NCBI GenBank assembly: GCA_022821845.1
Contig: JAJECT010000034.1
Span: 3,038 to 67,037 of the forward strand
Direction: 5' to 3'
DNA from: Rhodothermales bacterium
GTDB taxonomy: Bacteria > Bacteroidota > Rhodothermia > Rhodothermales > VXPQ01
Length of the DNA: 64,000 nt
How positions within the stretch are numbered: position 1 is the stretch's first letter; each line of letters starts with the position of its first letter. Shown here piece after piece: positions 9,279 to 44,731 of the stretch. The notes beneath the pieces were generated by a model. It made no database searches, was not told the DNA's origin, and saw nothing but the letters and a program-made list of their open reading frames with translations. The translations under genes and the position numbers were made by a program.

Positions 9279-9364
9279 TCCGCAGCGCGGGCGGGCCGGA
9301 CGCTTTGCCACCGCGCAGGCGCCCGGCCCGCAAGCGCCCGTCGGTCCTGAACGCTTGCGATAGA

Positions 9365-23561: not shown

Positions 23562-23634
23562 CTGCCCTGCCAGGATTCGAACCTGGAACCCCCTGATCCA
23601 GAGTCAGGTGCTCTGCCAATTGAGCTACAGGGCA
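23562..23634 (-). tRNA. tRNA-Gln (CUG)
   Basis: The reverse complement TGCCCTGTAGCTCAATTGGCAGAGCACCTGACTCTGGATCAGGGGGTTCCAGGTTCGAATCCTGGCAGGGCAG folds as a cloverleaf. The anticodon loop CTCTGGA gives CTG. U1-A72 and G73 match known tRNA-Gln identity features. Confidence 0.9.
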
Positions 23635-25956: not shown

Positions 25957-27213
25957 TTATTGCATGACGGCGGTTGCGTGGCGCTTTACGGAAGATACGC
26001 GGCGGCGCTGGGGGATAACGTCTCTGGGTACGCCGTAAAACTTGGCGGCTTCGGCCATCGTCAATGCAAGCAACTTCGGGTCGCCGAGCGCAAGCGTTTG
26101 CTGCGGAATCGTCGGAGCGACGCCGAGGGCGCGTATAATTTCACCCGCGATCGCCCCGCCGAGGAAAGGCGGAACCGAGTTCCCGATCTGTCGAAAACCG
26201 TGCCACTTGGTAACATGAAAACGAAACCAGTCGGGATAGGAGTGCAAACGCGCCGCTTCGCGATTCGTAACGACGCGCGGCGCATGCGGATGTATGGGGC
26301 GAGGCGAAGTGAACGCGCCGCGATCGCTGGCGGTGCCAGCGCGCAGCGTATTGCACTGCCCATCGGGATCCAGTTTCAGAAAACGACTGATCGGTTCGAC
26401 TTTTCCGCATGGCGTCGCCGCAAAACGACGACGGGATTTGTCGGTGTGCGCCGTTCGCAGACTGGACGTCACAAGGGAAGAATCGAAAACGCGCCGATAA
26501 CCGAAATTTTCCGGGTCGTCGCCAGGCACTCGCATTTTTCGAGCGTAATCGGACGGTTGCCCGTACCGCGCCTCGGCCCAATCTCGTCCGATCAATTCGA
26601 ACACATCGTCGGCCTCCGGCAAATCTCCGATGGCGTCGCTTACGGTAACGCGGCGGGTGAGGGGCGAAGGATAATTCGGTAACGGATAGTCCTGTTTGGC
26701 CCCGATCAAAAACAAGCGATGCCGGTTCTGCGGGACTCCGTAATCCGACGCGTTCAGAACGCGATACGGAAGCAGAATGTCGTAATCGTCCGCAAGCGCA
26801 GCGATCATTTCGTCCAGAACCTGCCGCTGTCTGCCCACCGTCAATCCCTTCACATTCTCGAAGACGAAGTACGCCGGGCGCAATTCCAGGACAAGTCGAA
26901 CGAAATGATGCACGAGCGCATTGCGCGGATCGTCCAGGGCGCGCTTGCCGATAAGGGAAAATCCCTGGCACGGCGCGCCCCCGAACACCGCGGCGATATC
27001 CGATCCTTCTATGCCGGCAAGGCGGAGAATATCGCTCCCGGCGATATCGCACACGTTCCGACAGATCGTTTTGCAGTAGGGGAAATTAAATTCGTGCGTC
27101 GCGCAATGAATCGGGTCGATTTCGACGGCGGCCGCCACGTGGAAACCGGCGCGCTCGAAACCGAGGCTCAATCCCCCGGCTCCCGCAAAAAGGTCTATTC
27201 CGATAGGTCGCAT
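25957..27213 (-). CDS. dcm: DNA (cytosine-5)-methyltransferase
   Basis: Motif I DLFAGAGG, motif IV GGAPCQGFS, ENV, QNRHRLF, and C-terminal REAARLHSYPDWF and GNSVPP. The start is set at MRPIGIDLF (ATG at 27211-27213). Confidence 0.92.
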   Translation of the reverse strand: MRPIGIDLFAGAGGLSLGFERAGFHVAAAVEIDPIHCATHEFNFPYCKTICRNVCDIAGSDILRLAGIEGSDIAAVFGGAPCQGFSLIGKRALDDPRNALVHHFVRLVLELRPAYFVFENVKGLTVGRQRQVLDEMIAALADDYDILLPYRVLNASDYGVPQNRHRLFLIGAKQDYPLPNYPSPLTRRVTVSDAIGDLPEADDVFELIGRDWAEARYGQPSDYARKMRVPGDDPENFGYRRVFDSSLVTSSLRTAHTDKSRRRFAATPCGKVEPISRFLKLDPDGQCNTLRAGTASDRGAFTSPRPIHPHAPRVVTNREAARLHSYPDWFRFHVTKWHGFRQIGNSVPPFLGGAIAGEIIRALGVAPTIPQQTLALGDPKLLALTMAEAAKFYGVPRDVIPQRRRVSSVKRHATAVMQ

Positions 27214-27320
27214 GGCGCGCCTCGCATTCTGACTTGGCCTCGAACGTTGAATATGCGTACGAAAAGGCGCTTTGTCAAGATGGAATTTGCCCAGCGCCCG
27301 ACAATGCATCCCGCCCCGTC

Positions 27321-28244
27321 TCACCGCACCGCTTCGTGCACCATCCGGGCGATTTCGGCGCCTGCTTGCGACGCCGTTTCGTGGTCTTCGAATCCTTCCG
27401 TCAGGATGACCAGCACGTAGGACGCGGCGTCTTTCGGATAGACGATGGCTGCGTCGTGCACGACGCCCGTAATCCATCCCGTTTTGTGGGCCACCCGCGT
27501 CCCGGGCGGCAATCCGGCGGGAATCATTTCATTGAATTCCTGCTTCAGCAGAATGTCCCGCATCGCTTCGCTGGCGGCGGGCGAAACCGCCTCGCCCCTG
27601 CGAATGGCGTCCAGCAGCAGGGCCAGGTCCGCCGCCGTGGCCGTATTGTTCAGCCCCCGTTCGAATGCCTTGATGTCCTCCACGCCACGCAGTACGCGCA
27701 TGGTTTGCGTGCCCATGCGTTCCATCGCGCGCTGCACGGAATCCGCCTCCACCCGTTCGATCACCAGATTCGTGGCGAGGTTCGAAGATACCGTGATCAT
27801 GCGTTCGGCCAGGTCGCGGATCGACATTGAATGTCCGAGATGTTCGTAGAGCGCGTCGTCGGAGTCGTCCTCGATGCGAAAGGGGGAGCCGTCCACGATG
27901 GAGGTGAAATCGTTCTCGACGCGCAGGGAATCGTCCAGGGAAAATCGGCCCGCCGCCGCCTGCCGGTAGACCTCGATCAGCACCGGCGTTTTCATGGTGC
28001 TGGCGGCGTGAAACACCCGGTCCCCCCGTATGGAAAAGCGCGTATCGGTTTCCGGGTCGATCAGCGCCACGGCGATCTCCGCCTCCGGCCAGGCAGTGAC
28101 GAAGGATTCGATGTTGGCCTTCAGGGTTTCGGAAGGAGGGGGCATGTTCTGGTCTGGATGGGCGCATCCCGGGGCCACTATGCCCCACGCCGCGAAGAGC
28201 GCGGACGCAAGCAGAACGGGAAGCGGTCGAGCGGGAGCGTACAT
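27321..28244 (-). CDS. Class A beta-lactamase-related serine hydrolase, lipoprotein
   Basis: STMK (SxxK), SSN and KTG triad motifs. Lipobox-like VAPGC in the signal region. The start is set at MYAPARP. Confidence 0.8.
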   Translation of the reverse strand: MYAPARPLPVLLASALFAAWGIVAPGCAHPDQNMPPPSETLKANIESFVTAWPEAEIAVALIDPETDTRFSIRGDRVFHAASTMKTPVLIEVYRQAAAGRFSLDDSLRVENDFTSIVDGSPFRIEDDSDDALYEHLGHSMSIRDLAERMITVSSNLATNLVIERVEADSVQRAMERMGTQTMRVLRGVEDIKAFERGLNNTATAADLALLLDAIRRGEAVSPAASEAMRDILLKQEFNEMIPAGLPPGTRVAHKTGWITGVVHDAAIVYPKDAASYVLVILTEGFEDHETASQAGAEIARMVHEAVR

Positions 28245-28281
28245 GAAGCGAAGGAGGCGCGGTCTGAGGACCCGCAACGGG

Positions 28282-28689
28282 TCAGGATGTATCCAGCAAA
28301 ATATGGTCAAGCGCTGGAATGCGGCCATACTTCTTCTCGAACGTAAGGAGACGCCCGCCGCGCTCTTGCGTCGCTGCCGCAATCCATACCATGTTGGCGG
28401 GCATGGGGGCGTTTGCGCGGCGCAGTGCGGCGAATATGCGGGCATAGTACATGGCGGTTTGCGCAGTCGTTTCCAATACGCTCACGAAGGGTTCGTCCAG
28501 GAATTCCGCAAGCATGCGCCGGTTCTCCTTGGCGCGGCGGCTGAGTGCGAACGCGGCCTCCAGTTCGCCCAGGACGGTTGCGGGCAAGGCCACCGTGGCC
28601 GCTTCGGCTACATGGTCCAGCGCCCCGGGGTGCCCGGCTCGCAAATGCGCCCACGCGCTGGTGTCAAGCACAAGCAGATGCGCGGACAT
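28282..28689 (-). CDS. vapC: PIN-domain toxin
   Basis: LLVLDTSAW N-terminal acidic motif and a conserved E/D pattern. It overlaps the upstream antitoxin gene by 1 nt. Confidence 0.85.
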   Translation of the reverse strand: MSAHLLVLDTSAWAHLRAGHPGALDHVAEAATVALPATVLGELEAAFALSRRAKENRRMLAEFLDEPFVSVLETTAQTAMYYARIFAALRRANAPMPANMVWIAAATQERGGRLLTFEKKYGRIPALDHILLDTS

Positions 28690-28934
28690 TATCGCCAGTA
28701 TCTTCTTCTGAGGCTGCGCTGGGGCCGCAGCGCCTCGGTGAATTCTTCCATGTCTTCGTCCGTCCAGGTGGCGTACCGCTCCAGGCGTTCGCGCCGCATA
28801 TTCAGCCCCGCGGCGTCCCGGAGCAGGTGCAATACGGTGCGGTTCAAACTCTCCCCGCGGGCTGCGCCAATAGCGCGAATCCGCCGCGAAAGTTCCGAAT
28901 CGACATTGCGTACTGTAATGCGGGATGATGTCAT
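28689..28934 (-). CDS. vapB: Ribbon-helix-helix (FitA/VapB-like) antitoxin
   Basis: ITVRNVDSELSRRIRAIGAARGESLNRTVLHLL is the RHH strand-helix-helix pattern. It is paired with the PIN toxin. Confidence 0.75.
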   Translation of the reverse strand: MTSSRITVRNVDSELSRRIRAIGAARGESLNRTVLHLLRDAAGLNMRRERLERYATWTDEDMEEFTEALRPQRSLRRRYWR

Positions 28935-28972
28935 GATGTCGTTAATATAGTGTCATGGTGTCATAATTGCAA
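28925..28972 (-). promoter_or_regulatory. vapBC promoter with TGTCAT/ATGATGTC operator-like repeats
   Basis: On the minus strand TTGCAA (28967-28972), a 17-nt spacer, then TATATT, then a nearly leaderless ATG. Tandem ATGATGTC sits at 28925-28932 and 28933-28940. TGTCAT sits at 28951-28956 and 28959-28964. Confidence 0.45.
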
Positions 28973-28974
28973 GT

Positions 28975-29066
28975 GGGGGTGTTTGTTGGGGTGGTGCGGC
29001 TGGGGGCTGGGCGGGCGCTTCTGGGCTGTGGGGGAAGGGGCTTTTGGGGAAGCGTGGCGGGGGTGG
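28975..29066 (+). repeat. Strand-asymmetric G-tract region (at least nine runs of G3-G5 on the plus strand)
   Basis: G runs read directly at 28975-79, 28988-91, 29002-06, 29009-11, 29013-15, 29023-25, 29030-34, 29037-40, 29046-49 and 29059-63, with almost no C runs. Confidence 0.85.
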
Positions 29067-29121
29067 AAACGTGAAATGCAGCCTGGATACGGGCGGCAAT
29101 TGGGGAATCCAGGGCTTGATC

Positions 29122-29151
29122 TTGACATTGCGATGCTATATTCCGTATCAT
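29122..29151 (+). promoter_or_regulatory. Sigma70-type promoter, module copy A
   Basis: TTGACA (29122-29127), an 18-nt spacer, then TATCAT (29146-29151). The same arrangement recurs at 31387-31416. Confidence 0.55.
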
Positions 29152-29160
29152 GCTGAACCG

Positions 29161-29476
29161 CCATCGGTTTTCAGTAAATATTCCATTCGGTACGGACCAT
29201 GCCAGCCTCCTCCCCCGACAATCGGCCTATCATGCCGGAGGCGCTTGGGCGTACCCGTAACCCGTTGGGGCACAACGAGGAGCCCCCCCCCCTCGATTTT
29301 ATCCTGACCGTTGGGTTCGCGGCGTAGCGCCGATTCTCGCGCTGACGCTTGCAGGGGGTGTCAAAAGTAACACGGCGAATCGCGCGGTTCGCATACGCAG
29401 GCGTTTGGCTCTGTTCTTCGCCACAGCGCAAAGCCTGGCAAGCGGTGTTGTTTGCCAATGTCGAATTCGAAAGCCG
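29161..29476 (+). repeat. Conserved leader / candidate ncRNA module, copy A
   Basis: Aligns without indels to 31425-31740 at a constant offset of 2264 bp. I count 9 mismatches in 29161-29327 and 28 in 29328-29476. Confidence 0.9.
29199..29327 (+). CDS. Candidate 42-codon sORF inside module copy A
   Basis: Encodes MPASSPDNRPIMPEALGRTRNPLGHNEEPPPLDFILTVGFAA. It is conserved in copy B with mostly third-position or conservative changes. Conservation drops right after the shared TAG. No clear Shine-Dalgarno. Confidence 0.3.
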   Translation: MPASSPDNRPIMPEALGRTRNPLGHNEEPPPLDFILTVGFAA

Positions 29477-29539
29477 TGATTGACATCCTTTCCACCGCCT
29501 GCGCGAGCCCAAACCCTTTCCAAGACAATTCATGAGATC

Positions 29540-31348
29540 ATGGAAGTCAAACTACGTAACCTCACTCACCTTTTCGTTCAACCGGGCCAGTACGAGATAC
29601 CGAGGTTCCAGCGCCCATACGTCTGGACCCGGGACAAACAGTGGATGCCGCTCTGGGAAGATGTTCAGCATATGGCGGAACGTATCCTCGCGGCACGACG
29701 CGACGGCTCCCCGCAACCTCAGCCCCATTTTATGGGTGCGGTGGTGCTGCAGCAGATTGCTAATGTAACCGGCTCGCTTCCGCGACGCATCGTAGTGGAC
29801 GGGCAACAACGCCTCACCACGCTCCAGCTTCTTCTCGACGCGGCGCAGGAAGTCTTTTTACGCAGGAATATCGCTGATCCTGCCGCCCGGCTTGAGGACT
29901 TGGTGTTGAACCAGCCGAAATACCAGCGTGGCAACGCGAACTACGCATTCAAGGTTTGGCCTACCGATTCAGACCAGGAGGCGTTTCGACATGCGATGGT
30001 CAATGGCTTGTCGGGAGGCGAATGGCCCAAATCGCGGATCGTACAGGCCCATGAATTCTTCAAGGATCAGGTAGACCAGTGGGTTGACGAAGAGGAGGGG
30101 CTGGATGCGGACGCGAACGAGCGAGCCGAGGCGCTGGAGGAAGTACTGTCGCAGCTATTGGAATTGGTTGTCATCGACTTGGGTGCATCGGATAACCCTC
30201 ATATCATTTTCGAGACCTTGAACGCTCGGGGCACGCCGCTTCGCCAGTCTGACTTGATGAAGAATATGATCCTGCACGAGGCAGAGAAAACCGGTATCGG
30301 CAAAAAAGTGACTTGGCCGTTCGAAGTTTCATGGTGGGATGAGGAAATTGAGCAGGGGCGACTCAGGCGCCCTCGCATCGACGTGTTCCTTAACTACTGG
30401 CTGGCGATGCGTATGCGCCGGGAAATTGTAGCTGCGGACGTGTTTTTGTCGTTCCAACGGTATTACGGAGGACAAGAACATGCCGCGATTAGCGACATTT
30501 TGGCTGATATCGCGAGCGTCAGTTTGGCCTATCGTCGCCTTGAAAAAGAGGAGCTGGACGGAGTGTGGGCGGCGTTTACTCCTCGCAGGAAAGTCATGCA
30601 AGCAGCCGTGGCGACCCCCGTTTTGTTGTGGTTGCTTTCGTCCCAAACGGAGCCGGACCAAGTATTCAGGGCCATCAAGGCACTGGAAAGCTATCTGGTG
30701 CGACGGATGGTGTGTCGTATGACCACCAAGAACTACAACAAGACGTTTATTGAACTCGTTCGGCGACTTGAACACGCTGGTCCGGCGACGGCAGGCGATA
30801 CAATCATTGAATTCCTCGGCGAACAGGAGGCGTACGCCACGCTTTGGCCCAACGACAATCTTGTGCTGGAAGCCATATCCAATAAGCCTTTGTACCGGCT
30901 ACTCTCGCGTAGACGAATGAGAATGGTCCTGGATGGGATTGAGGAGGCGCTCTGGACCACCAAATCCGAAGGCGGGCGGCGCCAAACTGCGTTGACGATC
31001 GAGCATATCATGCCGCGGAGCTGGCGGGGACACTGGCCAGAGCCAGAGCCGACGGACGGCCCCGAAGAACCAGATGAGAGGCGAAACCGACTGCTTGATT
31101 CGCTTGGCAATCTAACGCTCGTCACCCAGCCGTTGAATTCGTCGCTTTCTAACGGACCCTGGGCAGACAAGCGGAAGGGACTCCTGGGGCACAGTACGCT
31201 GTTTCTCAACAAGGACTTACTGGAGCATTTCCAGGATCATGTGTGGGACGAAGATGCGATCTACGCCAGGGCGGAGCGGCTGCATAGGGCATTTGTGAAG
31301 GCGTGGCCGCACGGCGCCGATATTGGCGCCGGATCCGCGACAGGTTAA
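29540..31348 (+). CDS. GmrSD-family type IV (modification-dependent) restriction endonuclease, DUF262 plus DUF1524
   Basis: N-terminal YEIPRFQRPYVW and VVDGQQRLTTL (ParB-like NTPase). C-terminal His-Me finger TIEHIMPRSW...LGNLTLVTQPLNSSLSN. The start is taken at ATG 29540; the ORF is open from 29480. Confidence 0.88.
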   Translation: MEVKLRNLTHLFVQPGQYEIPRFQRPYVWTRDKQWMPLWEDVQHMAERILAARRDGSPQPQPHFMGAVVLQQIANVTGSLPRRIVVDGQQRLTTLQLLLDAAQEVFLRRNIADPAARLEDLVLNQPKYQRGNANYAFKVWPTDSDQEAFRHAMVNGLSGGEWPKSRIVQAHEFFKDQVDQWVDEEEGLDADANERAEALEEVLSQLLELVVIDLGASDNPHIIFETLNARGTPLRQSDLMKNMILHEAEKTGIGKKVTWPFEVSWWDEEIEQGRLRRPRIDVFLNYWLAMRMRREIVAADVFLSFQRYYGGQEHAAISDILADIASVSLAYRRLEKEELDGVWAAFTPRRKVMQAAVATPVLLWLLSSQTEPDQVFRAIKALESYLVRRMVCRMTTKNYNKTFIELVRRLEHAGPATAGDTIIEFLGEQEAYATLWPNDNLVLEAISNKPLYRLLSRRRMRMVLDGIEEALWTTKSEGGRRQTALTIEHIMPRSWRGHWPEPEPTDGPEEPDERRNRLLDSLGNLTLVTQPLNSSLSNGPWADKRKGLLGHSTLFLNKDLLEHFQDHVWDEDAIYARAERLHRAFVKAWPHGADIGAGSATG

Positions 31349-31366
31349 ATCCGCCGCGTTTTTTTT
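31327..31366 (+). terminator. Rho-independent terminator after the GmrSD gene
   Basis: The stem cgccggat (31327-31334) pairs with atccg..gcg (31349-31358) with a CC bulge, and is followed by T8 (31359-31366). The stop codon lies in the loop. Confidence 0.5.
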
Positions 31367-31386
31367 GGAAACCCTTTGGCTTCTGC

Positions 31387-31416
31387 TTGACATTTCGATT
31401 CTAAATTTCGTATCAT
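31387..31416 (+). promoter_or_regulatory. Sigma70-type promoter, module copy B
   Basis: TTGACA (31387-31392), an 18-nt spacer, then TATCAT (31411-31416). Confidence 0.55.
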
Positions 31417-31424
31417 AGTGCCCA

Positions 31425-31740
31425 CCATCGGTTTTCAGTAAACATTCCATTCGGTACGGACCATGCCAGCCTCCTCCCCCGACAATCGGCCTATCATGCC
31501 GGAGGCGCTTGGACGTACCCGTAACCCGTTGGGGCACAAAGAAGAGCCCCCCCCCCTCGACTTTGTCCTGATCATTGGGCTCGCGGCGTAGCGCAAATTC
31601 TGTCGCTGACGCTTACGGGGTGTGTCAAAAGTAACACGGCGAATCGTGCGGTTCGCGGACGAAGCCGTTTGGTCCTGTTCTTCGCCGCAGCGCAAAGATT
31701 GGTACGCGATGTTTCTTGTCAATGCCCAATCCGAAACGCA
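31425..31740 (+). repeat. Conserved leader / candidate ncRNA module, copy B
   Basis: Indel-free alignment to 29161-29476. Confidence 0.9.
31463..31591 (+). CDS. Candidate 42-codon sORF inside module copy B
   Basis: Encodes MPASSPDNRPIMPEALGRTRNPLGHKEEPPPLDFVLIIGLAA, with the same start and stop register as copy A. Confidence 0.3.
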   Translation: MPASSPDNRPIMPEALGRTRNPLGHKEEPPPLDFVLIIGLAA

Positions 31741-32151
31741 ATAAAAATCCGAACCCTGTTTCTTGCGGCGGCCTTGATGCTGGCAGCCTGCGGACCTATG
31801 CAAGCGGAACGGCGGGAAGCGGACGCGCAAACGGATACCGTGTACTATTATAAACTTGCCCCGGTCCTTTCTCCTTGTCTTGATGCGTTCCGGCAAGCTT
31901 TGTATCCCGTAGCCGACTTATCCCTTTTCGTACCCCCTCCGGGGCATTCTGATCTTTTCCCGGCCTATTGGGCTTGCCGGACGCTTGACGAATGGACGGA
32001 AGCAAGCGAACGGTTTCCGGTGGTGTTGCAACTGGGCGGAGTAGACCCCGTTTGCTATGCGCTCAAAGTTTGCAACTGGGCGGCGGACGAACAAGAAGGC
32101 TACGCCGCCGCAATACAGGGTTCCCCGATATGCGAAGCGGTTGCGGTTTAG
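31699..32151 (+). CDS. Hypothetical lipoprotein
   Basis: Lipobox LMLAAC follows a K/R-containing n-region. It is Cys-rich with no recognised domain. The start is uncertain (TTG at 31699 or 31669) and overlaps the end of the module. Confidence 0.5.
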   Translation: MVRDVSCQCPIRNAIKIRTLFLAAALMLAACGPMQAERREADAQTDTVYYYKLAPVLSPCLDAFRQALYPVADLSLFVPPPGHSDLFPAYWACRTLDEWTEASERFPVVLQLGGVDPVCYALKVCNWAADEQEGYAAAIQGSPICEAVAV

Positions 32152-32207
32152 GCTACTTGTCGCTATTCCATTTTTTGTGCTCCATCCATTAACCCATCGG
32201 AAACGCT

Positions 32208-32669
32208 ATGTTTACGACAATCGTTATTATTTGCGTCATTTTCTGGCTTATCAAGAAAATGATCAATAGTTACGCGGATCACAACAGGAGAAAAGAGGGG
32301 GCATCAGGAACACCATTTGCGCGAGCATACTACGCACAGGCGCGGGCATTGTTTGCGGAAGGGGATTACGAATATCTTGAACGCGGTGTAACCACCAAGA
32401 AAGAAGATGCGGCGAGTGCTAAATACAATGCTGAGCGAGCGTGGAGTAAGGACAACGCTTCCTTTTTGCGGGAACAGACTCGCATGGCTCATTTACACGC
32501 CGCACGGGCGCAGGTAAACGCTTCGAACTGGCGGCATACGGAGAGAAAGAAAACCGACGTTCCGAAAGAACTGGCGAACAAGGCGGCGGTGGCGTGGGAA
32601 GAGGCGGCGGAAGCGTGGGAGGCGATTGCTGCGGATCACAAAACGAAGGAAAATGATGGAAATGCATGA
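32208..32669 (+). CDS. Hypothetical N-terminally anchored protein
   Basis: ATG start. TM helix FTTIVIICVIFWLI is followed by a helical, charged domain. Confidence 0.5.
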   Translation: MFTTIVIICVIFWLIKKMINSYADHNRRKEGASGTPFARAYYAQARALFAEGDYEYLERGVTTKKEDAASAKYNAERAWSKDNASFLREQTRMAHLHAARAQVNASNWRHTERKKTDVPKELANKAAVAWEEAAEAWEAIAADHKTKENDGNA

Positions 32670-33120
32670 ATCTTGGCCCTTGATTGTGGGCCTAGGGGCA
32701 GTAATGGGCATAAACCCCTTCGCCGCCGCGTTCGCTCTGGGGCTGGCTGGGGCAACGGGAACGGTTGATTTGCCGGGGGGTCTTGATGCGTTGCAAAAGA
32801 TCTGGGTAATCGTTCTTTCCGGCCTTCTGTATGGCGGGGAAGCGATTCTCGACAAGATTCCGGGCGTGGATACTGTATTTAACGCCATTGAAACCGTTGT
32901 TCGTGTGCCTGCGGCCAGCATGGCGGGCTATGCGGTAACGGGCGATCTGTTTGGAATCATGGCCGGGGGCATTTCGGGTACGACCCTTCACGGGTCAAAG
33001 ACACTTTTGCGTATCCCTATGACCGGTGCGCCGGGCCTTAACATACCCGTATCGTTTGGCGAAGACGCCGCCGTTTTTTATGCCCTGTGGTGGATGTGGC
33101 AACAGGGGTGGTTTGCATGA
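32653..33120 (+). CDS. DUF4126-like integral membrane protein
   Basis: Gly/Ala-rich helices LIVGLGAVMGINPFAAAFALGLAG and DKIPGVDTVFNAIETVVRVPAA fit DUF4126. It overlaps the upstream gene by 17 nt. Confidence 0.7.
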   Translation: MMEMHESWPLIVGLGAVMGINPFAAAFALGLAGATGTVDLPGGLDALQKIWVIVLSGLLYGGEAILDKIPGVDTVFNAIETVVRVPAASMAGYAVTGDLFGIMAGGISGTTLHGSKTLLRIPMTGAPGLNIPVSFGEDAAVFYALWWMWQQGWFA

Positions 33121-33228
33121 AAACGGCTTTCTCCTTCGGTTTTTGGCGGACGGGGAAAGCGGGATATCTTTGTGACGGGGCGAAAACCCGTTTCGCCTGA
33201 AACCTCACCAACAAAACCTCCGAATACA

Positions 33229-33456
33229 ATGGCACTTAAACCAGAAGATGCGAAATCCGATCAAATTTGTCTTTTTGTTGCGGGATGCACGGGCTGCAAA
33301 AAGCAGGACGTGGTAAAGAGTATAGGCGTTCAGTTTGGATCAATAGATACGCGTATAAACCTCGGCTGGATCGTCGATGCAAAAGACAATGTGCAAAAAC
33401 GCACCGAACTTTATGTTACGCATAAGTGGTTGCATCATGTGCGTGGCGGGCTGTAG
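33229..33456 (+). CDS. Small hypothetical protein with a CxxC motif
   Basis: 75 aa from MALKPEDAK, containing CLFVAGCTGC. No recognised family. Confidence 0.35.
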   Translation: MALKPEDAKSDQICLFVAGCTGCKKQDVVKSIGVQFGSIDTRINLGWIVDAKDNVQKRTELYVTHKWLHHVRGGL

Positions 33457-33705
33457 CATGCACTTCGAGAATTGCACACAATCCGGGCGGGCATACGCTC
33501 GTTTTTCCAGCGACCGACCTGCGTGAGGCCGGACAATTCCGTACCAGAGGGGGCAAGGTCCCCGGCCATGCCTATGCGGGCGGAATGCCCCGAAAATTCG
33601 CCATTGAAGTCAACGGTAGCACAGATAAGGAGGGGCACATCCACAATTCCCACGGGACGTTTTTCCCGTCCCCCGCCAAGACAACAGCATAATCAAGTTG
33701 TTTTT

Positions 33706-33733
33706 GTCAGATATTTCATATAATTTTTCTGAC
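33706..33733 (+). promoter_or_regulatory. Promoter with perfect -10 flanked by an inverted repeat (candidate autoregulatory operator)
   Basis: TATAAT at 33719-33724 is bracketed by GTCAGA (33706-33711) and TCTGAC (33728-33733). It lies 20 nt upstream of the DUF6088 start codon. Confidence 0.45.
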
Positions 33734-33753
33734 CAACCACGCAAAAAACCTTC

Positions 33754-34407
33754 ATGGCAACCACAGCAAGCGCCATACTGGAGCGAATCCGGCACCAGCG
33801 GGATCAGGTCTGGACGCCGAAAGATTTCCTGGACCTCGGCAAACGCGCTGCGGTTGACAAGGCCCTCTCTCGCCTTGTCGGCAGCGAAAAACTGCGGCGC
33901 ATAGGGCATGGACTGTACGACATGCCTCGATTCAATCCAATTCTGAAACGCTTCGCGCCGGTCAGCCTCAATGCTGCCATCGCCGCCATCGCCCGACGAG
34001 ACAACATACGCATCATGCCCGATGGCTCCGTGGCGGCGAACAGGCTTGGCCTGACCAACGCTGTCCCGGCCAAGCCGAATTATCTTACGGACGGCGGAAC
34101 GCGATCACTGATTGTCGATGGACGTATGATCTACCTGCGACACGCCGGACCCAAGGTAATGTACTGGACAGGCAACAAGCGAACCGGCCCGGTCGTTCAG
34201 GCAATTCGCTGGCTTGGCCCGCAAGCAGTCCAGGACGAGCAGGTCCTCTCCGCGCTAAAACGCCGCCTCCCCGATTCCGTGAAGCAGGATTTGGTGCGCA
34301 ACGCCCGCCATTTACCCGGATGGATCCTGTCTTTGGCGAATGAACTCGTGGACAATCCGCCCGATGCCCCCGCAACGCGATGCGAGAAGCATTCAGGAAA
34401 TTTATGA
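33754..34407 (+). CDS. DUF6088 / AbiEi-like antitoxin-family protein
   Basis: ILERIRHQRDQVWTPKDFLDLG...VDKALSRLVGSEKLRRIGHGLY is the wHTH N-terminus of AbiEi/DUF6088 proteins. No AbiEii nucleotidyltransferase follows. Confidence 0.8.
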   Translation: MATTASAILERIRHQRDQVWTPKDFLDLGKRAAVDKALSRLVGSEKLRRIGHGLYDMPRFNPILKRFAPVSLNAAIAAIARRDNIRIMPDGSVAANRLGLTNAVPAKPNYLTDGGTRSLIVDGRMIYLRHAGPKVMYWTGNKRTGPVVQAIRWLGPQAVQDEQVLSALKRRLPDSVKQDLVRNARHLPGWILSLANELVDNPPDAPATRCEKHSGNL

Positions 34408-34442
34408 ATTTGTACAGTAAGGACTAAACCGACGGCCTCTCT

Positions 34443-35265: not shown

Positions 35266-35532
35266 TCAAGACGCCACTGGCGCTTTCCCCACCGGATACC
35301 CTGTAGCGAGGGATGGCCACCGCATGTCGTTCAGCCGTGATCGCAGTTGAGTGGCTTTCTTCGCTACGTCTGGATACTGCTCCCGATACGCCTTGGCGAC
35401 ATCGTCCAGTACATCCAGCAAAAAAACCAGTTCATCTTCTGCCGCCAATTCAATCTGTCCGACGGCAATCCGAGGATCTTTCCGAAATTCTCCCCGAAGC
35501 CATTCGAAGTGGTCTACGCCCATGTTGCTCAT
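35266..35532 (-). CDS. Antitoxin-like protein, copy 2 (paralog of 36914..37273)
   Basis: MSNMGVDHFEWLRGEFRKDP... is about 65% identical to copy 1, with a single-codon in-frame indel. The N-terminus resembles addiction-module antidote proteins that follow killer toxins. Confidence 0.55.
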   Translation of the reverse strand: MSNMGVDHFEWLRGEFRKDPRIAVGQIELAAEDELVFLLDVLDDVAKAYREQYPDVAKKATQLRSRLNDMRWPSLATGYPVGKAPVAS

Positions 35533-35603
35533 GGTCCTTATGGTTTGGTTATTCCGTGTCTTGATTTCCAGTCCTGGAGACGTTTTTTCGCTGTGGCGAC
35601 GTC
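35290..35603. repeat. Segmental duplication, lower copy (antitoxin gene plus the last ~63 nt of the toxin gene)
   Basis: Aligns to about 37028-37344 (offset 1738-1741) at roughly 80% identity. Confidence 0.8.
35538..35603 (-). pseudogene. 3' remnant of a RelE/ParE-type killer toxin gene
   Basis: Encodes DVATAKKRLQDWKSRHGITKP-stop, homologous to the C-terminus DIATAKKRLRDWKARHGKTRH of the intact toxin at 37270..37620. Homology ends 5 nt from the stop codon of the 433-aa gene. Confidence 0.6.
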
Positions 35604-35608
35604 GCCAG

Positions 35609-36910
35609 TCAACCCTGCAAGGCGGCAATACTTTCGATCAATTCCTGAAAGTCGGGGTCCTCGCGCAAGTTCGGGCCGGTCCGAACGGGGGTATTCGAAA
35701 GGGGGGGCCGTCGAAGAGGCGTTGCAAAGCGTAGCCATCCATTCCTGCGTTGTGGTTGATCCCCTGCGATCTGCGGTTGGCAGGGACGGTCCAGCCCGGC
35801 CGTTTTGATGCCTCGCTTGATTTCTTGCGCCCGCCAATGGTTCAACATGATGGCTTTCCCGAACCCACATTCCGGTCCAAGTTGCGCGGGCAGCACAGCC
35901 TCATAGGGACGAGGCGACCCGGCCTCGGCGACCAGGAGTTTGAGCGTTGACGCCAGGCGCTTCGCTGGATCCGGCCAGCAGATGAATTCCGGCCACCCCG
36001 TATCGGCCAGGGAAAAGTCTACGACAAGCAGCCGCAGATAATCCGGCGAGGGCGCGCCGCACGGGCGTTTCTGTAATTCGCCCAACAGTTTACGCCCCCA
36101 CTGGCTCCGGGCTGTGCTTTGGGGCGTTCCAAAGTGGTCGAAAAACATTCTGGCTTCGGCTGATCGCATGGATGTATGTTGCGTAACAATACGATACGCC
36201 GGATCGGGATGCAGGGTGTCGATCGTTACGCGCAAGCGGAGCGATGCCGTGGCGTCTTGAAACAAACGCTCCTCTCCCGCTTGCGCACGGGGAATCCATG
36301 CTGCGGCTTCTTCTCTCAACGCAGCAAGCCACGCGCGGACAAGATTTTCGCGCATAGCGTCGTCGAAGAATAAATCGTCGTCGTCCTCCTTCTCCTCATC
36401 CTGACGCAGGCTTTCGAGGCGGAGCGTTATTTCAAACCCCGTATCGACTTCAAGGTACTTGAATGTCATGCCCAGATAGCGCCCGACCAATTGGCAACCG
36501 AAAAAATCCGCAGGACAATAGACCTCGACGCGCATACGCGACGAACCGGCGGTCAGTTCGATGTCGCCGCGCCTGGTTTCCGGCGGGGCGGAAGCCGGTT
36601 GCGCATGCTCTGCTCCGAATACGCCCTGAAGATGCGCAAGCAAATTGAATTCCGACAGCGCTCGGTGGAATGGCAACAGGTCGGTTTGTTCGACTACGCG
36701 CTTGCCGATGCTCCCGGATGCGGTAAGATGGTCGTCTATAAAGGCCAGCAACGCCTCGATATGCTCGTACTGCGCGTTCCCAAGCAGGCGGACAATTTCC
36801 AGTTCGCTTCGACCGGATTCGGGCAGTTTGCCCCTTATTCGTTCCGCAATGCGCGGGAAACGCTCCAGGACGTTCTGGACTTCGCTGGTGATCGGATACC
36901 GAATGGCCAT
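35609..36910 (-). CDS. Hypothetical 433-aa protein, no recognised domain
   Basis: Long ORF with an ATG start 4 nt after the upstream antitoxin stop. It contains an acidic block QDEEKEDDDDLFFDD and a possible nuclease-like segment RGDIELT...RVEVYCP (speculative). Confidence 0.7.
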   Translation of the reverse strand: MAIRYPITSEVQNVLERFPRIAERIRGKLPESGRSELEIVRLLGNAQYEHIEALLAFIDDHLTASGSIGKRVVEQTDLLPFHRALSEFNLLAHLQGVFGAEHAQPASAPPETRRGDIELTAGSSRMRVEVYCPADFFGCQLVGRYLGMTFKYLEVDTGFEITLRLESLRQDEEKEDDDDLFFDDAMRENLVRAWLAALREEAAAWIPRAQAGEERLFQDATASLRLRVTIDTLHPDPAYRIVTQHTSMRSAEARMFFDHFGTPQSTARSQWGRKLLGELQKRPCGAPSPDYLRLLVVDFSLADTGWPEFICWPDPAKRLASTLKLLVAEAGSPRPYEAVLPAQLGPECGFGKAIMLNHWRAQEIKRGIKTAGLDRPCQPQIAGDQPQRRNGWLRFATPLRRPPLSNTPVRTGPNLREDPDFQELIESIAALQG

Positions 36911-36913
36911 GTC

Positions 36914-37273
36914 TCATCCTGTGGTTTCCACTGCCGTAGGTTGGGTTTGACTCCTGCGACGACGAGCGTGGCGCAGGCCCGTCGCGGCGGCTTGTTTGTC
37001 AAGGCCTTGTTCCGGTAACGTTTTCCGCACCGGATAGCCTATAGCGAGAGACGGCCACCGCATGTCGTTCAGCCGCGCCCGCAGCTGAATGGCTTTCTTC
37101 GCTACGTCTGGATACTCCTCCCGGTACGCCTCGGCGATATTGTCCAAGGCGCGCATAAGAATAACCAGCGCCTCTTCTTCCGCCGCCACGTTCAGATAAC
37201 CGGTGGCGAATTCCGGGTCTTTCCTTAATTCTCCCCGAAGCCATTCGTAGTGGTCTACGCCCAAGTTGCTCAT
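36914..37273 (-). CDS. Antitoxin-like protein, copy 1
   Basis: Its start overlaps the toxin stop (ATGA). Sequence begins MSNLGVDHYEWLRGELRKDPEFATGYLNVAAEEE. Confidence 0.6.
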   Translation of the reverse strand: MSNLGVDHYEWLRGELRKDPEFATGYLNVAAEEEALVILMRALDNIAEAYREEYPDVAKKAIQLRARLNDMRWPSLAIGYPVRKTLPEQGLDKQAAATGLRHARRRRSQTQPTAVETTG

Positions 37274-37344
37274 GATTTTGCGGTGTTATGTCTTGTTTTC
37301 CCGTGTCTCGCCTTCCAGTCCCGCAGTCGCTTTTTCGCTGTGGC
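37028..37344. repeat. Segmental duplication, upper copy
   Basis: Counterpart of 35290-35603. Confidence 0.8.
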
Positions 37345-37620
37345 GATGTCGGCGCGTTGTGTTTTCTTGCTACCTGCGCACAAAAGCAAAATGACTGTTT
37401 TCCCTGCGCGAGCGAAGTATACGCGATATCCGGGGCCATAATGGATACGCAGTTCCCGTATTGTCCCGCCTACTGCTATGCAGTCGCCGAAATTGCCTTC
37501 CGCAAGACGGTCAAGCCGCGTTGCAATTCGCTCTCTGGCTCTCGGGTCCCGAAGATCATCCAGCCACCGCTGCACCGGATCGCGTGCATTTTCCGTAGTG
37601 TAATGCTGGATATCGAACAT
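37270..37620 (-). CDS. RelE/ParE-superfamily addiction-module killer toxin
   Basis: YTTENARDPVQRWLDDLRDPRARERIATRLDRLAEGNFGDCIAVGGTIRELRIHYGPGYRVYF matches the killer-protein family that precedes HigA-like antidotes. Confidence 0.85.
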   Translation of the reverse strand: MFDIQHYTTENARDPVQRWLDDLRDPRARERIATRLDRLAEGNFGDCIAVGGTIRELRIHYGPGYRVYFARAGKTVILLLCAGSKKTQRADIATAKKRLRDWKARHGKTRHNTAKS

Positions 37621-39365: not shown

Positions 39366-40379
39366 TCATTTCTTCGTAATAAGACCAGCGGCGGCCCGTC
39401 CCCGCGCCGTGAGGCGGTATTTCTGATTTCTTGCCGTGGGCGCGTCGGGATGGGTCATTTCCACCAGTCCGGCGTCCAGCGCGGGCCAAATGTAGTTGTT
39501 GCGAAACGTCGGCCGGTGGGAGAGGCCAAGCGCCCCCATGAGTGCGCGCGCGGACCTGGGACCGCCTTGCAACCCTTCGATTAGACGCGCTACTTGGTCG
39601 GTTGCATGATCGCTTTCTTGGTCGGTCTCCCCGCAATCCAGCACCGCCTCAAGAATAGCCTCCAGCATATAGACGATAAACGGGGTGCTTTCCCCTTTCG
39701 AAGAACTTTCCCGAATGGCCTCATAGTACGCGCTTTGCCGCGCATAAACGAGGCTTTCCACCGGCACGTCGGCGAACAGGGACTTCCAGCGCGTCAGGAT
39801 CAGCGTTTGCCACAGCCTGCCCATGCGCCCGTTGCCGTCCTCGAAAGGATGAATAAACTCGAATTCGTAGTGGAATACCGAACTGGCGATCAAGGGATGT
39901 TCGTCGGCGCTGTCCAGCCAGGCAAGGAGATTCGACATGAGGCCTGGTACGAGGTGGGTGGGCGGCGCGATATGCTGCACTTTGCCGCCGCCGAATACCC
40001 CCACGCCGCGGCGCCGGTACTGTCCGGGGGCGTCGAGCAGCGCCGTCATGAGCATCCGGTGCGCCGTGAGCAAGTCGTCCTCGCTTGCGGGGTTCCACTG
40101 CGGGAACTGGTCGTAGACCTTGATGGCGTTGCGCGCTTCCTGGACTTCCCGCAAGGGCGCGATGACCGGCTTGCCGTCGAGAATGGTCGAAATCTCGTCC
40201 TAGCTGAGCGTATTCCCTTCGATCGCCAGCGAGCCCTGGATGGCGCGGATGCGGTTGATCCGCCGCAGACGCAAACTCATCGGCTGCGCGACGGCCTCCG
40301 CGCGGCCGATGGCTTCGCCGATCTGCGCGACCAGGTCGAGAATGGCGGGGATGATGGCGTATGGCGGCGCGGTACTCAT
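39366..40379 (-). pseudogene. Fic-domain protein interrupted by one in-frame TAG (40200-40202)
   Basis: ORFs 40200..40424 and 39366..40154 are in the same frame. The read-through gives ...SLAIEGNTLS*DEISTILDGKPV..., then the Fic motif HPFEDGNGRMGR and a C-terminal wHTH. Confidence 0.8.
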
Positions 40380-40398
40380 GAACGTGGCAGACAGACGA

Positions 40399-41646
40399 TC
40401 AGAAGATGTCCTCTCGCCCTTCATGCGGGGACGGCTTCGCCCAGATGGTCAGGCGCAGTTCCTCGCCGAATAGTTCGTATTCGGGTCGTCGCCCGGAATG
40501 CGCTTCGCTGGCTTCAAGTATGCCGCGTACGCCCTCGCCCCTTGATTCCAGAAATGCGCGTCCAGTGTGGCGGCTCTTCATTCGGGACAGGAAATTCACC
40601 AGGAGTTGATTCCGGGTGAAAACGCGGTATGGCATTGTTTTGATCGAAAGCGTATTGGGCAACGATCCTGGACTGTATATCTCCATCCTGTCCGCGAAGA
40701 GAAATAGTCTGATCTTTCCGCCGGAAATCGAGTAATCGCGGTGAGCGACGGCATTCACAATGGCTTCGTGTACGGCGTTCGGCACGTACTGGGGATGATC
40801 CTCGCGTCCGGCGTTCTTGCGTGCAGGCCTCAGCATGAATCGATCAACAAACTCGGCAGCGTCATCAATCTGTTCATTTGCCGGACCCCTGATCGACTCG
40901 GCGTGCACCAGGTCGTCGGACGTAAGGCGTGTTCCGCGGTATACTGCCGCCTCCACGAACGCCGAGGGCAAGTGCTTGTCCGGCGTTGCGCCGAATGCCA
41001 ATAGTCCGGCAACAGTAGGTTGTGCGACGTTGTTATCGCTTGTTTCTACGACACGCGTATTTCGCAGGAGATCAAGCCACGGTATCAGGGTGGGGCCGTT
41101 CGCGAAAAATTCCTTCAGGCGGCGGTCGTCAAGATCGTCAACCGTTGCCGTGGGAACGCGTTTCTCATCGAAAACGAATGTTCGTCCGCGCTCTTGAAAG
41201 AGGCGAGCCAGAGCGGCGCCTTTAAGCAATTGTTTCGTCGCGCCAACCCGGATGTAGTGACGTCCGCTACTTGTGCCATGAACGTACAGTCCGCGCTTTA
41301 CTTCCACCAGGATTACGAGGCGTTCCGAATTGCCTGGGTCGGCCAGTCGCTCCTTGCGGAGAATCGGGTGAATAGGAGGATCGCAATTGTTGTTGGCGAT
41401 GTTGATGGCCCAAGACTCCACCACGTTCGCACGGTCCGGCGGAATGCCGCGCACAACGCCGTCATCGTCCACGCCTAAAAAAATCACTCCCCCCTCGGCG
41501 TTGGCGAACGCGACCATTTCGCTTGCCATTTCCTCGGTGTTTGGAGAACGAACGCCGTGAGTGCGCAAATCGACCTGCTTAAACTCAGCCCTTGCATCCT
41601 CCAGGGCCTCTAACTGTCGTCTAATTTCGTCTAAAGTGTCGAACAT
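40399..41646 (-). CDS. AlbA_2 (Schlafen-like) DNA-binding domain plus HATPase_c_4-type protein
   Basis: N-terminal EDARAEFKQ...MVAFANAEGGVIFLGVDDDG pattern and C-terminal EAIVNAVAHRDYS. It lies 16 nt after the upstream ATPase gene. Confidence 0.8.
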   Translation of the reverse strand: MFDTLDEIRRQLEALEDARAEFKQVDLRTHGVRSPNTEEMASEMVAFANAEGGVIFLGVDDDGVVRGIPPDRANVVESWAINIANNNCDPPIHPILRKERLADPGNSERLVILVEVKRGLYVHGTSSGRHYIRVGATKQLLKGAALARLFQERGRTFVFDEKRVPTATVDDLDDRRLKEFFANGPTLIPWLDLLRNTRVVETSDNNVAQPTVAGLLAFGATPDKHLPSAFVEAAVYRGTRLTSDDLVHAESIRGPANEQIDDAAEFVDRFMLRPARKNAGREDHPQYVPNAVHEAIVNAVAHRDYSISGGKIRLFLFADRMEIYSPGSLPNTLSIKTMPYRVFTRNQLLVNFLSRMKSRHTGRAFLESRGEGVRGILEASEAHSGRRPEYELFGEELRLTIWAKPSPHEGREDIF

Positions 41647-41662
41647 GTGCGCAGGGCTTGTT

Positions 41663-44600: not shown

Positions 44601-44731
44601 CGCAACCAACGGGCGCCGGGTTCGACATGCGTTGTAGTCAATTCAGTTATCTCGCTGTAAGTGTCAAAAATAGTGGCGTACAAGGCGCTATACCGGATTG
44701 CAGGGCGCTCTGCGCTTGGTATCCACACCAT
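41663..44731 (-). CDS. PHP phosphoesterase fused to an SMC/Rad50-like ABC ATPase with coiled-coil insert (Ppl-like)
   Basis: PHP motifs CDLHVHTPFD and ADHNSIEG. Walker A GGRGSGKST. A long E/R/L/Q-rich coiled-coil segment. SIGQKSTAILSLLL, Walker B PIIIDQPEDDLD, and VTHNANI. Confidence 0.8.
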   Translation of the reverse strand: MVWIPSAERPAIRYSALYATIFDTYSEITELTTTHVEPGARWLRCDLHVHTPFDGEKRFGGDIRGAIAALTQGDSTRLEEIAERFVGACQSADDGNGMDLVALADHNSIEGFKQLKPLFQKIETRAKNEGKAMPAILPAVEFSVGGERPIHFLVIFASDTEPADIEGVIRHVFQARECFNSTTGTPLATGESLNDFLKKLYEYAKPATGKRNLSFVLLPAHADGNRGVAKETGADKSGVAANLWDEMKGHLRQWAVARTEWNGFETTRPFERLPQAFQDLLCQWTVAKQGEDWDKLPTSRRQGVRNQGHWPLVEGSDPHNYEAIGSRYSWLKMEVPDVEGIRLALLDPQSRLRRMTEGPPGQHYTRIKRLRVRCTDFFEDIDVPFNACLTTLIGGRGSGKSTVVEYLRHTLDRARSEDLRNHETSDIRDQVHPLLLSKKERDFGDSRGTLLPDYEMDIDLVVAERHYLVRRSANGLTVIPDANQPNAAPAALDVRSLIVPRILSQRQIARIARNPASQRTELDALIDPDRLRKIENLRRSHGEKLAQFQTTRSRLEEQRRKYPSIKTELKKICDQIGFLESEGRKEVLQRFDAFERERRWLESIQKDLNEIAARLDEEAGVVEQDDSGARGVPKSTPTTTWLDSVAGRVATACNGAAAALREEANSLRALATAIKQETAEKWQADYDKSHAEYDALRQEMVERGVDFAQHEKLLQRRAQLERELETLQKTDQELSDIERNLGETRLRLVETHKARLAARLEQAKALEDMDADVRLEVYAFRDRGDFESRREHWFGGAGVQERDWTALCEHVFAPNGVVPDRIADLAKAIREDLGATTDKGAAIEASASKVVALVGPNAQLTKNFLNALERRERIRIDEIERFLPEDRIEAQVRTDDGAFKTIETGSIGQKSTAILSLLLSAGDQPIIIDQPEDDLDNQYVYNVVVDLLRRRKFSRQVIIVTHNANIPVNGDAELIVALGAKNRLGKVISAGSIDRPDVKNHVSRIMEGSAEAFRLRRERYGY

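Follow-up and report, generated by a model that had tools for sequence, protein, structure and literature searches.

In a 64,000-nt stretch of a contig from a Rhodothermales bacterium (JAJECT010000034.1; the window, by which we mean that whole stretch), the gene for a GmrSD-type restriction enzyme lies between two direct copies, A and B, of a sequence that consists of a predicted sigma-70-type promoter and a 5' leader of about 320 nt. We call this sequence the module. It is probably a lineage-specific expression module that has been reused in front of different genes, that is, a mobile promoter, and the 5' part of its leader is constrained. Genomes of one group of uncultured Rhodothermales contain several copies of the module, and each copy is found upstream of, and pointing to, a different accessory gene or operon (its cargo). 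What is more, both edges of the module coincide with breakpoints at which close relatives differ in gene content.

The module and its copies in related genomes

Positions 29158-29457 and 31422-31721 form a direct repeat with a spacing of 2264 nt and 89% identity. The initial annotation of this DNA had described a gap-free alignment at this constant offset, with 9 mismatches in one part and 28 in the other. A base-by-base count reproduced the alignment, with no indels, and the 9 mismatches in 167 nt (29161-29327), while the remaining 149 nt (29328-29476) were found to hold 29. The same-format promoter that had been placed before each copy, TTGACA-18 nt-TATCAT, was located in both, matching the consensus at 11 of 12 positions; the two sites are the best matches in 28900-32300, where seven sites were found against 1.8 expected. 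The DNA upstream of the two promoters had been considered unrelated. This is true beyond the module edge but not for the adjoining nucleotides, as the segments that span the promoter and extend some 9 nt beyond the -35 box on its upstream side (29113-29151 and 31378-31416) are 82% identical. A one-nucleotide indel between the -10 box and the core of the leader separates these segments from the main repeat alignment. A search of the window revealed no module copies beyond A and B.

The repeat might have occurred nowhere else, which the initial annotation had weighed against a function, but copies were found in relatives, that is, on related metagenome contigs (labelled L with a number). These contigs were reached by an exact look-up, in a large protein collection, of the 42-aa pseudo-open reading frames (pseudo-ORFs) that the module carries, followed by homology searches. 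Together they provide 11 distinct copies in six independent contexts, in related metagenome assemblies of uncultured Rhodothermales. The alignment used throughout, A6, contains the orthologues of copy A (window, L004, L011 and L015) and of copy B (window, L004 and L011) along with the copies of L014, L013, L019 and L016. The L019 copy is the orthologue of that in L013, and L017 and L018 carry the L016 copy without any change. Other contigs contain at least four additional variants of the pseudo-ORF, and a genome of 3.07 Mb contains three module copies. Short-read contigs of the same organism from Logan (L001-L003 and L012) are interrupted within both copies of the module; where an assembly is fragmented, the GmrSD gene is left alone on a contig of about 2.2 kb, which would hide the architecture from routine surveys.

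The family has well-defined limits. Alignability starts about 9 nt upstream of the -35 box in all copies, and similarity fades near GAATTCGAA (window 29464-29472), about 320 nt past the predicted start. Both edges are sharp, and the flanks on either side are unrelated among independent loci. Within these limits TTGACATT is unchanged in all 11 copies and the -10 box is conserved (TATCAT, TATTAT or TCTTAT), whereas the promoter spacer and the first few predicted transcribed bases vary. This invariance, the conserved -10 box and the variable spacer make up the pattern expected of a working promoter, as which the site is predicted. Conservation picks up again at CCATCGGTTTTCAGTAAA and reaches its highest level in P1, an imperfect hairpin. 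All the hairpins named in the initial annotation are present in the sequence and are predicted in both copies, the single difference between A and B in 29376-29391 falling at loop position 29383. The C10 run is likewise confirmed in A and B. The tract has ten residues in most copies and twelve in copy A of L004 (~7818-7829), copy A of L011 and the L016 copy, and lengths of 9 and 11 were never seen among the copies examined. This difference could be the mark of a hypermutable switch, or it could be an artefact that arose when the homopolymer was assembled. As to the hairpin with a T8 terminator that had been read after the GmrSD gene, the U8 run is present, but its stem is only a weak one of 4 bp and the site does not appear among the results of the terminator scan. 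The features are listed in the table.

Features of the module, its cargos and the adjoining block in the window
Feature	Position	Strand	Basis
Module copy A, promoter and ~320-nt leader	29113-29476	+	family-profile match at 29113-29479 (nhmmer); one of the 11 aligned copies
Sigma-70-like promoter of copy A, TTGACA-18 nt-TATCAT	29122-29151	+	11/12 consensus match
P1, 67-nt imperfect hairpin, most conserved part of the module (copy A); GGTACG/CGTACC enclosing GCCTCC/GGAGGC	29189-29255	+	predicted in both copies and in the alignment fold
42-aa pseudo-ORF or possible upstream ORF, C tract read as PPP	29199-29327 (A), 31463-31591 (B)	+	called as a gene in public data
Poly-C tract	29283-29292	+	C10 in the window, C12 in copy A of L004 and of L011
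Three short conserved hairpins (29358-29373 with stem GTGT/ACAC; stem CGAATC/GGTTCG at 29376-29391)	29321-29349, 29358-29373, 29375-29392	+	folds of the copies and of the alignment
Cargo 1, GmrSD (DUF262/DUF1524) type IV restriction enzyme gene	29540-31348	+	Pfam GmrSD_N 7e-34, GmrSD_C 1e-24
U8 run after the GmrSD stop, weak terminator-like site	31359-31366	+	sequence reading; 4-bp stem in fold; not in scan output
Module copy B	31378-31740	+	promoter 31387-31416, P1 31453-31519, C10 31547-31556
Cargo 2: lipoprotein (~31699-32151), 153-aa membrane protein (32208-32669), DUF4126 protein (32656-33120)	31699-33120	+	ORFs, Pfam DUF4126, L002 gene calls
Tyrosine-recombinase gene remnant (132 nt) bordering the block	33485-33616		blastn 84% to L004 5534-5665

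The two parts of the leader diverge at different rates. Among the independent loci A, B, L014 and L013 the divergence of P1 is 1.5-4.5%, and it is 7.5-10% in comparisons with L016; the 3' part of the module diverges by 15-39% in those same comparisons. Between genomes, the core (columns 49-183 of A6, the first ~135 nt including P1) differs by 4.0% and the 3' part by 11.0% when six orthologous pairs are summed (Fisher p = 5e-7), and three independent orthologous pairs give 5.0% and 13.4%, respectively. For comparison, genes next to the module have a synonymous divergence of 0.05-0.15 between the window and L004. Since gene conversion alone homogenises copies within a genome and does not slow divergence between genomes, the slowly changing core points to selection. 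Judged by these comparisons, the core is under purifying selection at the nucleotide level, roughly three-fold, and the 3' part looks close to neutral.

Cargos, breakpoints and exchange between copies

The next gene lies on the strand of the module in all six independent contexts (p = 0.016). It starts 0-190 nt past the module end, at a distance that differs in every context, and the gene upstream of the module is divergent in four of five contexts. The claim that one promoter and leader are joined to unrelated cargos is borne out by the window and by relatives, among which at least six independent contexts support it. When the cargos were compared all against all by BLASTP, the sole related pair consisted of two DUF4126 proteins with 42% identity. 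The operon behind copy B of the window, which encodes a lipoprotein, a 153-aa membrane protein and a DUF4126 protein, is shared with L004, and in the window the lipoprotein starts at or inside the 3' end of the module. Copy B of L011 is followed by genes for three unrelated small proteins. The cargo in L013 and L019 comprises a small membrane protein, the DUF4126 paralogue (42% identity) and two other proteins, and that of L014 a lipoprotein-like ORF, a secreted protein of 502 aa and a protein of 174 aa. In L016 (1-5607) the module precedes an operon for membrane and coiled-coil proteins of 506, 254, 456 and 414 aa, adjoining a tRNA gene at its end. This operon shows weak ZorA-, JetC- and LmuB-like matches, probably due to coiled-coil composition, and could be an uncharacterised defence or envelope system. 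The specific link to a defence hotspot that had been suggested is not upheld: the copy of L014 is next to the mraZ/dcw cluster and that of L013 is at a distant site on the chromosome, and GmrSD is the only recognised defence protein among the cargos.

In copy B of the window, copy B of L004 and L014 the module leads straight into a lipoprotein signal peptide ending in LAAC. With the module joined directly to a signal peptide in these cases, part of the family resembles an arrangement of a conserved upstream region with a signal-peptide lipoprotein. Very similar signal peptides are found at the start of three otherwise unrelated secreted cargos: L004_779 and L014_502 have MKTRILF/LLxAALTL, and the lipoprotein of the window has IKIRTLFLAAALMLAAC. 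The corresponding stretch of the window (31727-31782) is 82% identical in nucleotides to that of L004 (2776-2831) over 56 nt, and in L014 it runs from 10635. This coding stretch may serve as a second recombination handle.

The module does not generally travel with GmrSD, as GmrSD homologues at 77-79% identity (L005-L010) have it on neither side. An identical GmrSD protein, 77% identical to that of the window, is encoded in L007-L010 in at least three chromosomal contexts (metagenome-assembled genomes (MAGs) labelled Gemmatimonadota, and others). Its gene occupies 8001-9809 in both L007 and L008; in L007-L009 it is preceded by genes for DUF5128 and 350/414-aa proteins and followed by a gap of about 900 nt, which suggests a separate mobile unit without the module. 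In L015 (10341-12062) the GmrSD gene is split into ORFs of 373 aa and at least 181 aa and is probably a pseudogene; the module upstream is intact. A similarly truncated GmrSD (P0034) of 373 aa, 91% identical to the N-terminal part, is encoded on another contig.

Comparison of close relatives reveals how the edges of the module coincide with rearrangements. L011 has VapB, copy A, GmrSD and copy B in the order of the window, with 92% identity, and its homology to the window stops at L011 position 2829 (window 31733), the 3' end of copy B, where three unrelated genes replace the lipoprotein operon. In L004 the block from copy A through GmrSD and copy B to the lipoprotein operon (window 29121-33458) is kept whole with 95% identity. 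It lies, however, on the other side of a tyrosine-recombinase/DUF6088 gene pair, and the breakpoint is the 5' edge of copy A. The recombinase gene is intact in L004 (5472-6473; Pfam Phage_integrase), split in L011 and reduced to a remnant in the window. The order A-GmrSD-B is kept in all three genomes readable on both sides (window, L004 and L011).

The copies also exchange sequence with one another. In the four-gamete test 527 of 1176 informative site pairs were incompatible (45%), and copy B of L011 is visibly composed of segments that resemble A and segments that resemble B; both observations indicate that gene conversion carries patches from one copy to another. No spatial signal emerged from a PHI-like test of neighbour incompatibility, the level of incompatibility being uniformly high. 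Recombinational loss or exchange of the GmrSD cassette had been anticipated in the initial annotation. Recombination at and between the copies is visible in the replaced cargo of L011 and in its mosaic copy B, but no GmrSD-minus variant was seen. Within a genome A and B are 86-88% identical, whereas orthologues are 92-93% identical. As the paralogues are less alike than the orthologues, the duplication predates the split of these genomes.

These results can be combined in the following model. The module would supply transcription and shared cis-acting control to whatever gene joins its 3' end, the control element being either the P1 RNA or the corresponding DNA sequence, which directly follows the start site. 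Since the joined sequences and their distance from the module change from context to context, the shared control would most likely be exerted on transcription or the fate of the transcript (elongation, termination, stability), and sequestration of one particular ribosome-binding site is an unlikely mode. The position of GmrSD between A and B would go back to an event, older than the divergence of the sampled genomes, in which a unit of module and GmrSD was placed in front of a resident lipoprotein operon that had a module of its own. From then on modules could recombine homologously and undergo gene conversion, so that rewiring and exchange of cargos would be possible, which could explain both the mosaicism and the cargo swap.

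Weighing the reused promoter against other readings

Several points weigh against the module being a reused promoter with a controlling leader. The promoter is predicted from a match to the consensus only, and the cargos may have promoters of their own. Gene conversion inflates the similarity among copies. The family is narrow, with one Rhodothermales MAG among 185,579 species-representative genomes, and no copy was found in JGI metagenomes, viral contigs, plasmids or phages. An exact-pattern scan of the genome collection with the invariant blocks returned only the Rhodothermales MAG and a chance match in Paenibacillus, and the same type of scan of viral contigs returned none. Four exact-pattern matches in metagenomes were rejected as spurious, since they cover only a C-rich stretch of about 28 nt that recurs within each contig. 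A blastn search of plasmid and phage records gave no match, and scans of genome and metagenome contigs with the stop-free minus-frame translation as a pseudo-protein yielded no relatives.

The evidence for RNA structure is the other weak point. P1 and the three short hairpins are possible in each of the 11 copies; 97.7% of the cells pair, and about 10 do not. However, the covariation proposed as a check in the initial annotation is too weak to establish an RNA structure, as 26 of the 40 tested pairs never vary and compensatory change is seen in only two, one from G-C to A-U in P1 of copy A of L015 and one, shared by L013 and L019, from U-A to C-G in the GUGU/ACAC stem. The covariation term from RNAalifold is +1.41, with no positive covariation signal, and the fold energies of the whole leaders are ordinary (z = -1.2 and +0.8). 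One-sided transitions in stems were compatible with pairing on the plus strand in 10 cases and on the minus strand in 5, a difference that is not significant. In P1, loops and bulges show about the same degree of conservation as the stems, so that a sequence-specific protein or DNA site fits as well as an RNA fold. An RNA structure in the leader thus appears compatible with the data rather than demonstrated by them, and a protein or DNA site downstream of the start would fit equally. Searches with the covariance models of Rfam 15, which cover riboswitches, leaders, sRNAs, 6S, tmRNA, RNase P, HEARO and other families, found only tRNAs at the gathering threshold, two in the window and others in L013, L014 and L016, and a permissive search of 29000-31900 with E up to 10 found nothing credible, in keeping with the initial annotation, in which the sequence had not been recognised as a riboswitch, RNase P, 6S, tmRNA or tRNA-like element.

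A more ambitious version of the reused promoter is possible, though we would give it a rather low probability. The module would then be a portable regulatory adaptor with a new cis-acting RNA, the P1 core, and its conserved body would be a handle for homologous recombination through which incoming genes, defence genes among them, are plugged in and exchanged. The P1 RNA could be a leader that acts by processive antitermination, by Rho-dependent attenuation or by sensing a ligand or protein, and a hypermutable C tract could add on/off switching. If true, this would make the module a recombinase-independent functional analogue of the integron expression platform.

A different function would follow if the core encoded a translated upstream ORF (uORF) of 42 aa, in which stalling at the PPP stretch or the length of the C tract (C10 or C12) set downstream expression by attenuation or phase variation. 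Every copy examined has an ATG, a C tract that corresponds to PPP or PPPP and a stop that lies within the module, the tract length varies between orthologous copies, and the ORF is repeatedly called by gene callers; in L016 the C12 tract is accompanied by a compensating +1 change that restores the same TAG stop. On the other hand, the frame is shifted in copy A of L004 and copy A of L011, which have C12 instead of C10, and the C12 copies alter the C-terminal third. The variable columns are distributed over the codon positions as 9:6:6, and the most conserved part of the ORF (the N-terminal 25 codons) shows about 10 amino-acid changes against 3 silent ones, a pattern that indicates no constraint at the protein level. 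The ORF has no family match and no Shine-Dalgarno sequence, although the neighbouring genes also lack one. Judging from these patterns, it is unlikely to encode a protein under selection, and we regard a regulatory uORF as improbable. The 42-aa ORF and the long minus-strand ORFs were rejected as real genes on the basis of the frameshifts, the codon-phase pattern and the lack of family matches.

We are about as sceptical, or slightly more so, of two further explanations. In the first, the module would be an independent gene for a trans-acting small RNA with its own promoter, the downstream genes being incidental or expressed only by read-through. This would agree with the strong predicted promoter, with a conserved part that starts within a few nucleotides of the predicted start and with the promoter-proximal position of the most conserved segment of about 135 nt. 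However, the terminator scan of the plus strand detected no intrinsic terminator, either inside the module or where it ends. The co-directional downstream gene in every one of the six contexts and the direct run into a lipoprotein signal peptide in three copies also weigh against it, and several near-identical copies per genome would be unusual for a trans-acting RNA.

In the second, the module would act at the DNA level, as the end of a mobile element or as a recombination site at which the neighbouring tyrosine recombinase moves cassettes of module and cargo. Consistent with this, both module edges are structural breakpoints between relatives, a tyrosine-recombinase gene, or what remains of one, lies next to the block in L004, L011 and the window, and P1 is a long imperfect palindrome. 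The breakpoints, however, are at the module edges and not in P1, and L013, L014 and L016 have no recombinase next to the module. There are no terminal inverted repeats between the module ends and no target-site duplication at the junctions. The motif that recurs at the junctions, AATCCGGG, is present at chance frequency, and AATCCGG(G) at these sites was accordingly rejected as an att-like core. The L004 recombinase scores 22 bits, against cut-offs of 220-335 bits for the XerC and XerA/integron models, which places it far below what is required of an IntI-type integrase.

Finally, a recent neutral segmental duplication of one promoter region without a function of its own, which would agree with only two copies in the window and with unremarkable fold energies, is very improbable and already contradicted by the dispersed copies in at least six unrelated contexts and several assemblies, by a duplication older than the split of the genomes and by the uneven divergence of orthologues (core 4%, 3' part 11%).

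Returning to the module as a reused promoter, it combines sharp edges, a core whose sequence is conserved from genome to genome, six or more cargos (an anti-phage restriction enzyme among them) and a cargo swap exactly at the 3' edge. To our knowledge, reused promoters are a statistical phenomenon of thousands of families, almost none of which has defined edges, measured constraint or observed rewiring. The module offers a concrete system in which to study how genes gained by horizontal transfer come to be expressed, and regulated together, in a new host. In addition, it is a candidate for a new leader RNA, of narrow distribution, from a poorly studied bacterial order.

Related systems and the surrounding island

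The closest match among described systems is the class of putative mobile promoters (PMPs), defined as sequences at least 80% identical over at least 50 nt that lie upstream of non-paralogous genes (Matus-Garcia, Nijveen & van Passel, NAR 2012; summarised in PMC3575422). Most PMP families of that survey are described as having no Rfam match and as being of unknown function and means of movement (PMC3575422). Copies A and B are 88-89% identical over 300-360 nt, and the adjacent genes are non-paralogous by the BLASTP comparison of cargos, with the DUF4126 pair (42%) as the sole exception. The module resembles PMPs in being a similar non-coding upstream sequence before non-paralogous genes without an Rfam match. 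It differs in its length (~360 bp), its defined edges, its leader of about 320 nt with a constrained core, and the replacement of a cargo exactly at the 3' edge. By the operational definition, the module would be a well-delimited addition to a known but poorly understood class, confined to one Rhodothermales lineage and with a promoter function that is predicted.

The 5' regions of certain lipoprotein gene families provide another parallel. Such regions are the "upstream homology box" of the Borrelia erp/ospEF genes and, in the Mycoplasma vlp/vsp genes, a promoter, leader and signal peptide with a homopolymer tract. As in the module, a shared promoter, a leader and some signal peptides are joined to different coding sequences by recombination, and a homopolymer varies in length. 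Here, however, several cargos are not lipoproteins (GmrSD, membrane and coiled-coil proteins), and the homopolymer is in the leader rather than in the promoter spacer.

Leaders that recruit processive antiterminators to horizontally acquired operons, such as ops/JUMPStart with RfaH and the UpxY leaders of Bacteroides, are likewise conserved, promoter-proximal sequences before diverse accessory or surface operons, and the control they exert is independent of the cargo start region. The ops 12-mer GGCGGTAGnnTG has no plus-strand match with two or fewer mismatches in either module, and its counts across the window equal those expected by chance. The module differs from these leaders in that it lacks the 12-mer and, at about 320 nt, is far longer than ops.

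Integron cassettes (Pc, attI/attC and IntI) share with the arrangement in the window single cargos in tandem, hairpin-forming repeats between them and a tyrosine recombinase nearby. In contrast to integrons, each repeat is about 360 bp long and has its own promoter, the recombinase is not of the integron type, and dispersed single copies occur without a recombinase. By our reading of the alignments, the breakpoints are also at the repeat edges and not inside the hairpin. An end of a miniature inverted-repeat transposable element or insertion sequence, such as the promoter-bearing Correia-like elements, was rejected, there being no terminal inverted repeats, target-site duplications or plasmid or phage matches.

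The module pair of the window lies in a region of lower GC content, 0.53-0.58 over 29-38 kb compared to 0.60-0.68 outside. Segments 25957-28934 and 39366-44731 form an island rich in defence and toxin-antitoxin genes near a tRNA-Gln gene (23562-23634), with a Dcm-type methyltransferase, VapBC, HicB-like, HigBA-like and Fic proteins, an AlbA_2/HATPase_c_4 protein and an ATPase of 1022 aa. The island is rearranged between close relatives (window 33485-34413, L004 5472-7493 and L011 4390-7391). AbiEii follows DUF6088 in L011 only, and L004 has an extra 779-aa protein, sorted by the type IX secretion system (T9SS), between VapB and the recombinase.

A second diverged direct repeat is located at 35281-35604 and 37019-37351, with 77-82% identity and a spacing of about 1740. 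It contains a HigA-like antitoxin gene (35266-35628 and 36914-37273) and the 3' end of a Gp49/HigB-like toxin gene (37270-37620), and it brackets a 433-aa gene without an assigned function (35609-36910, minus strand), so that an accessory gene is again found between duplicated sequences. Near the start of the window there are tandem repeats of 33 nt, at least seven copies at 642-971 and two at 1345-1410, which probably represent a repetitive coding region.

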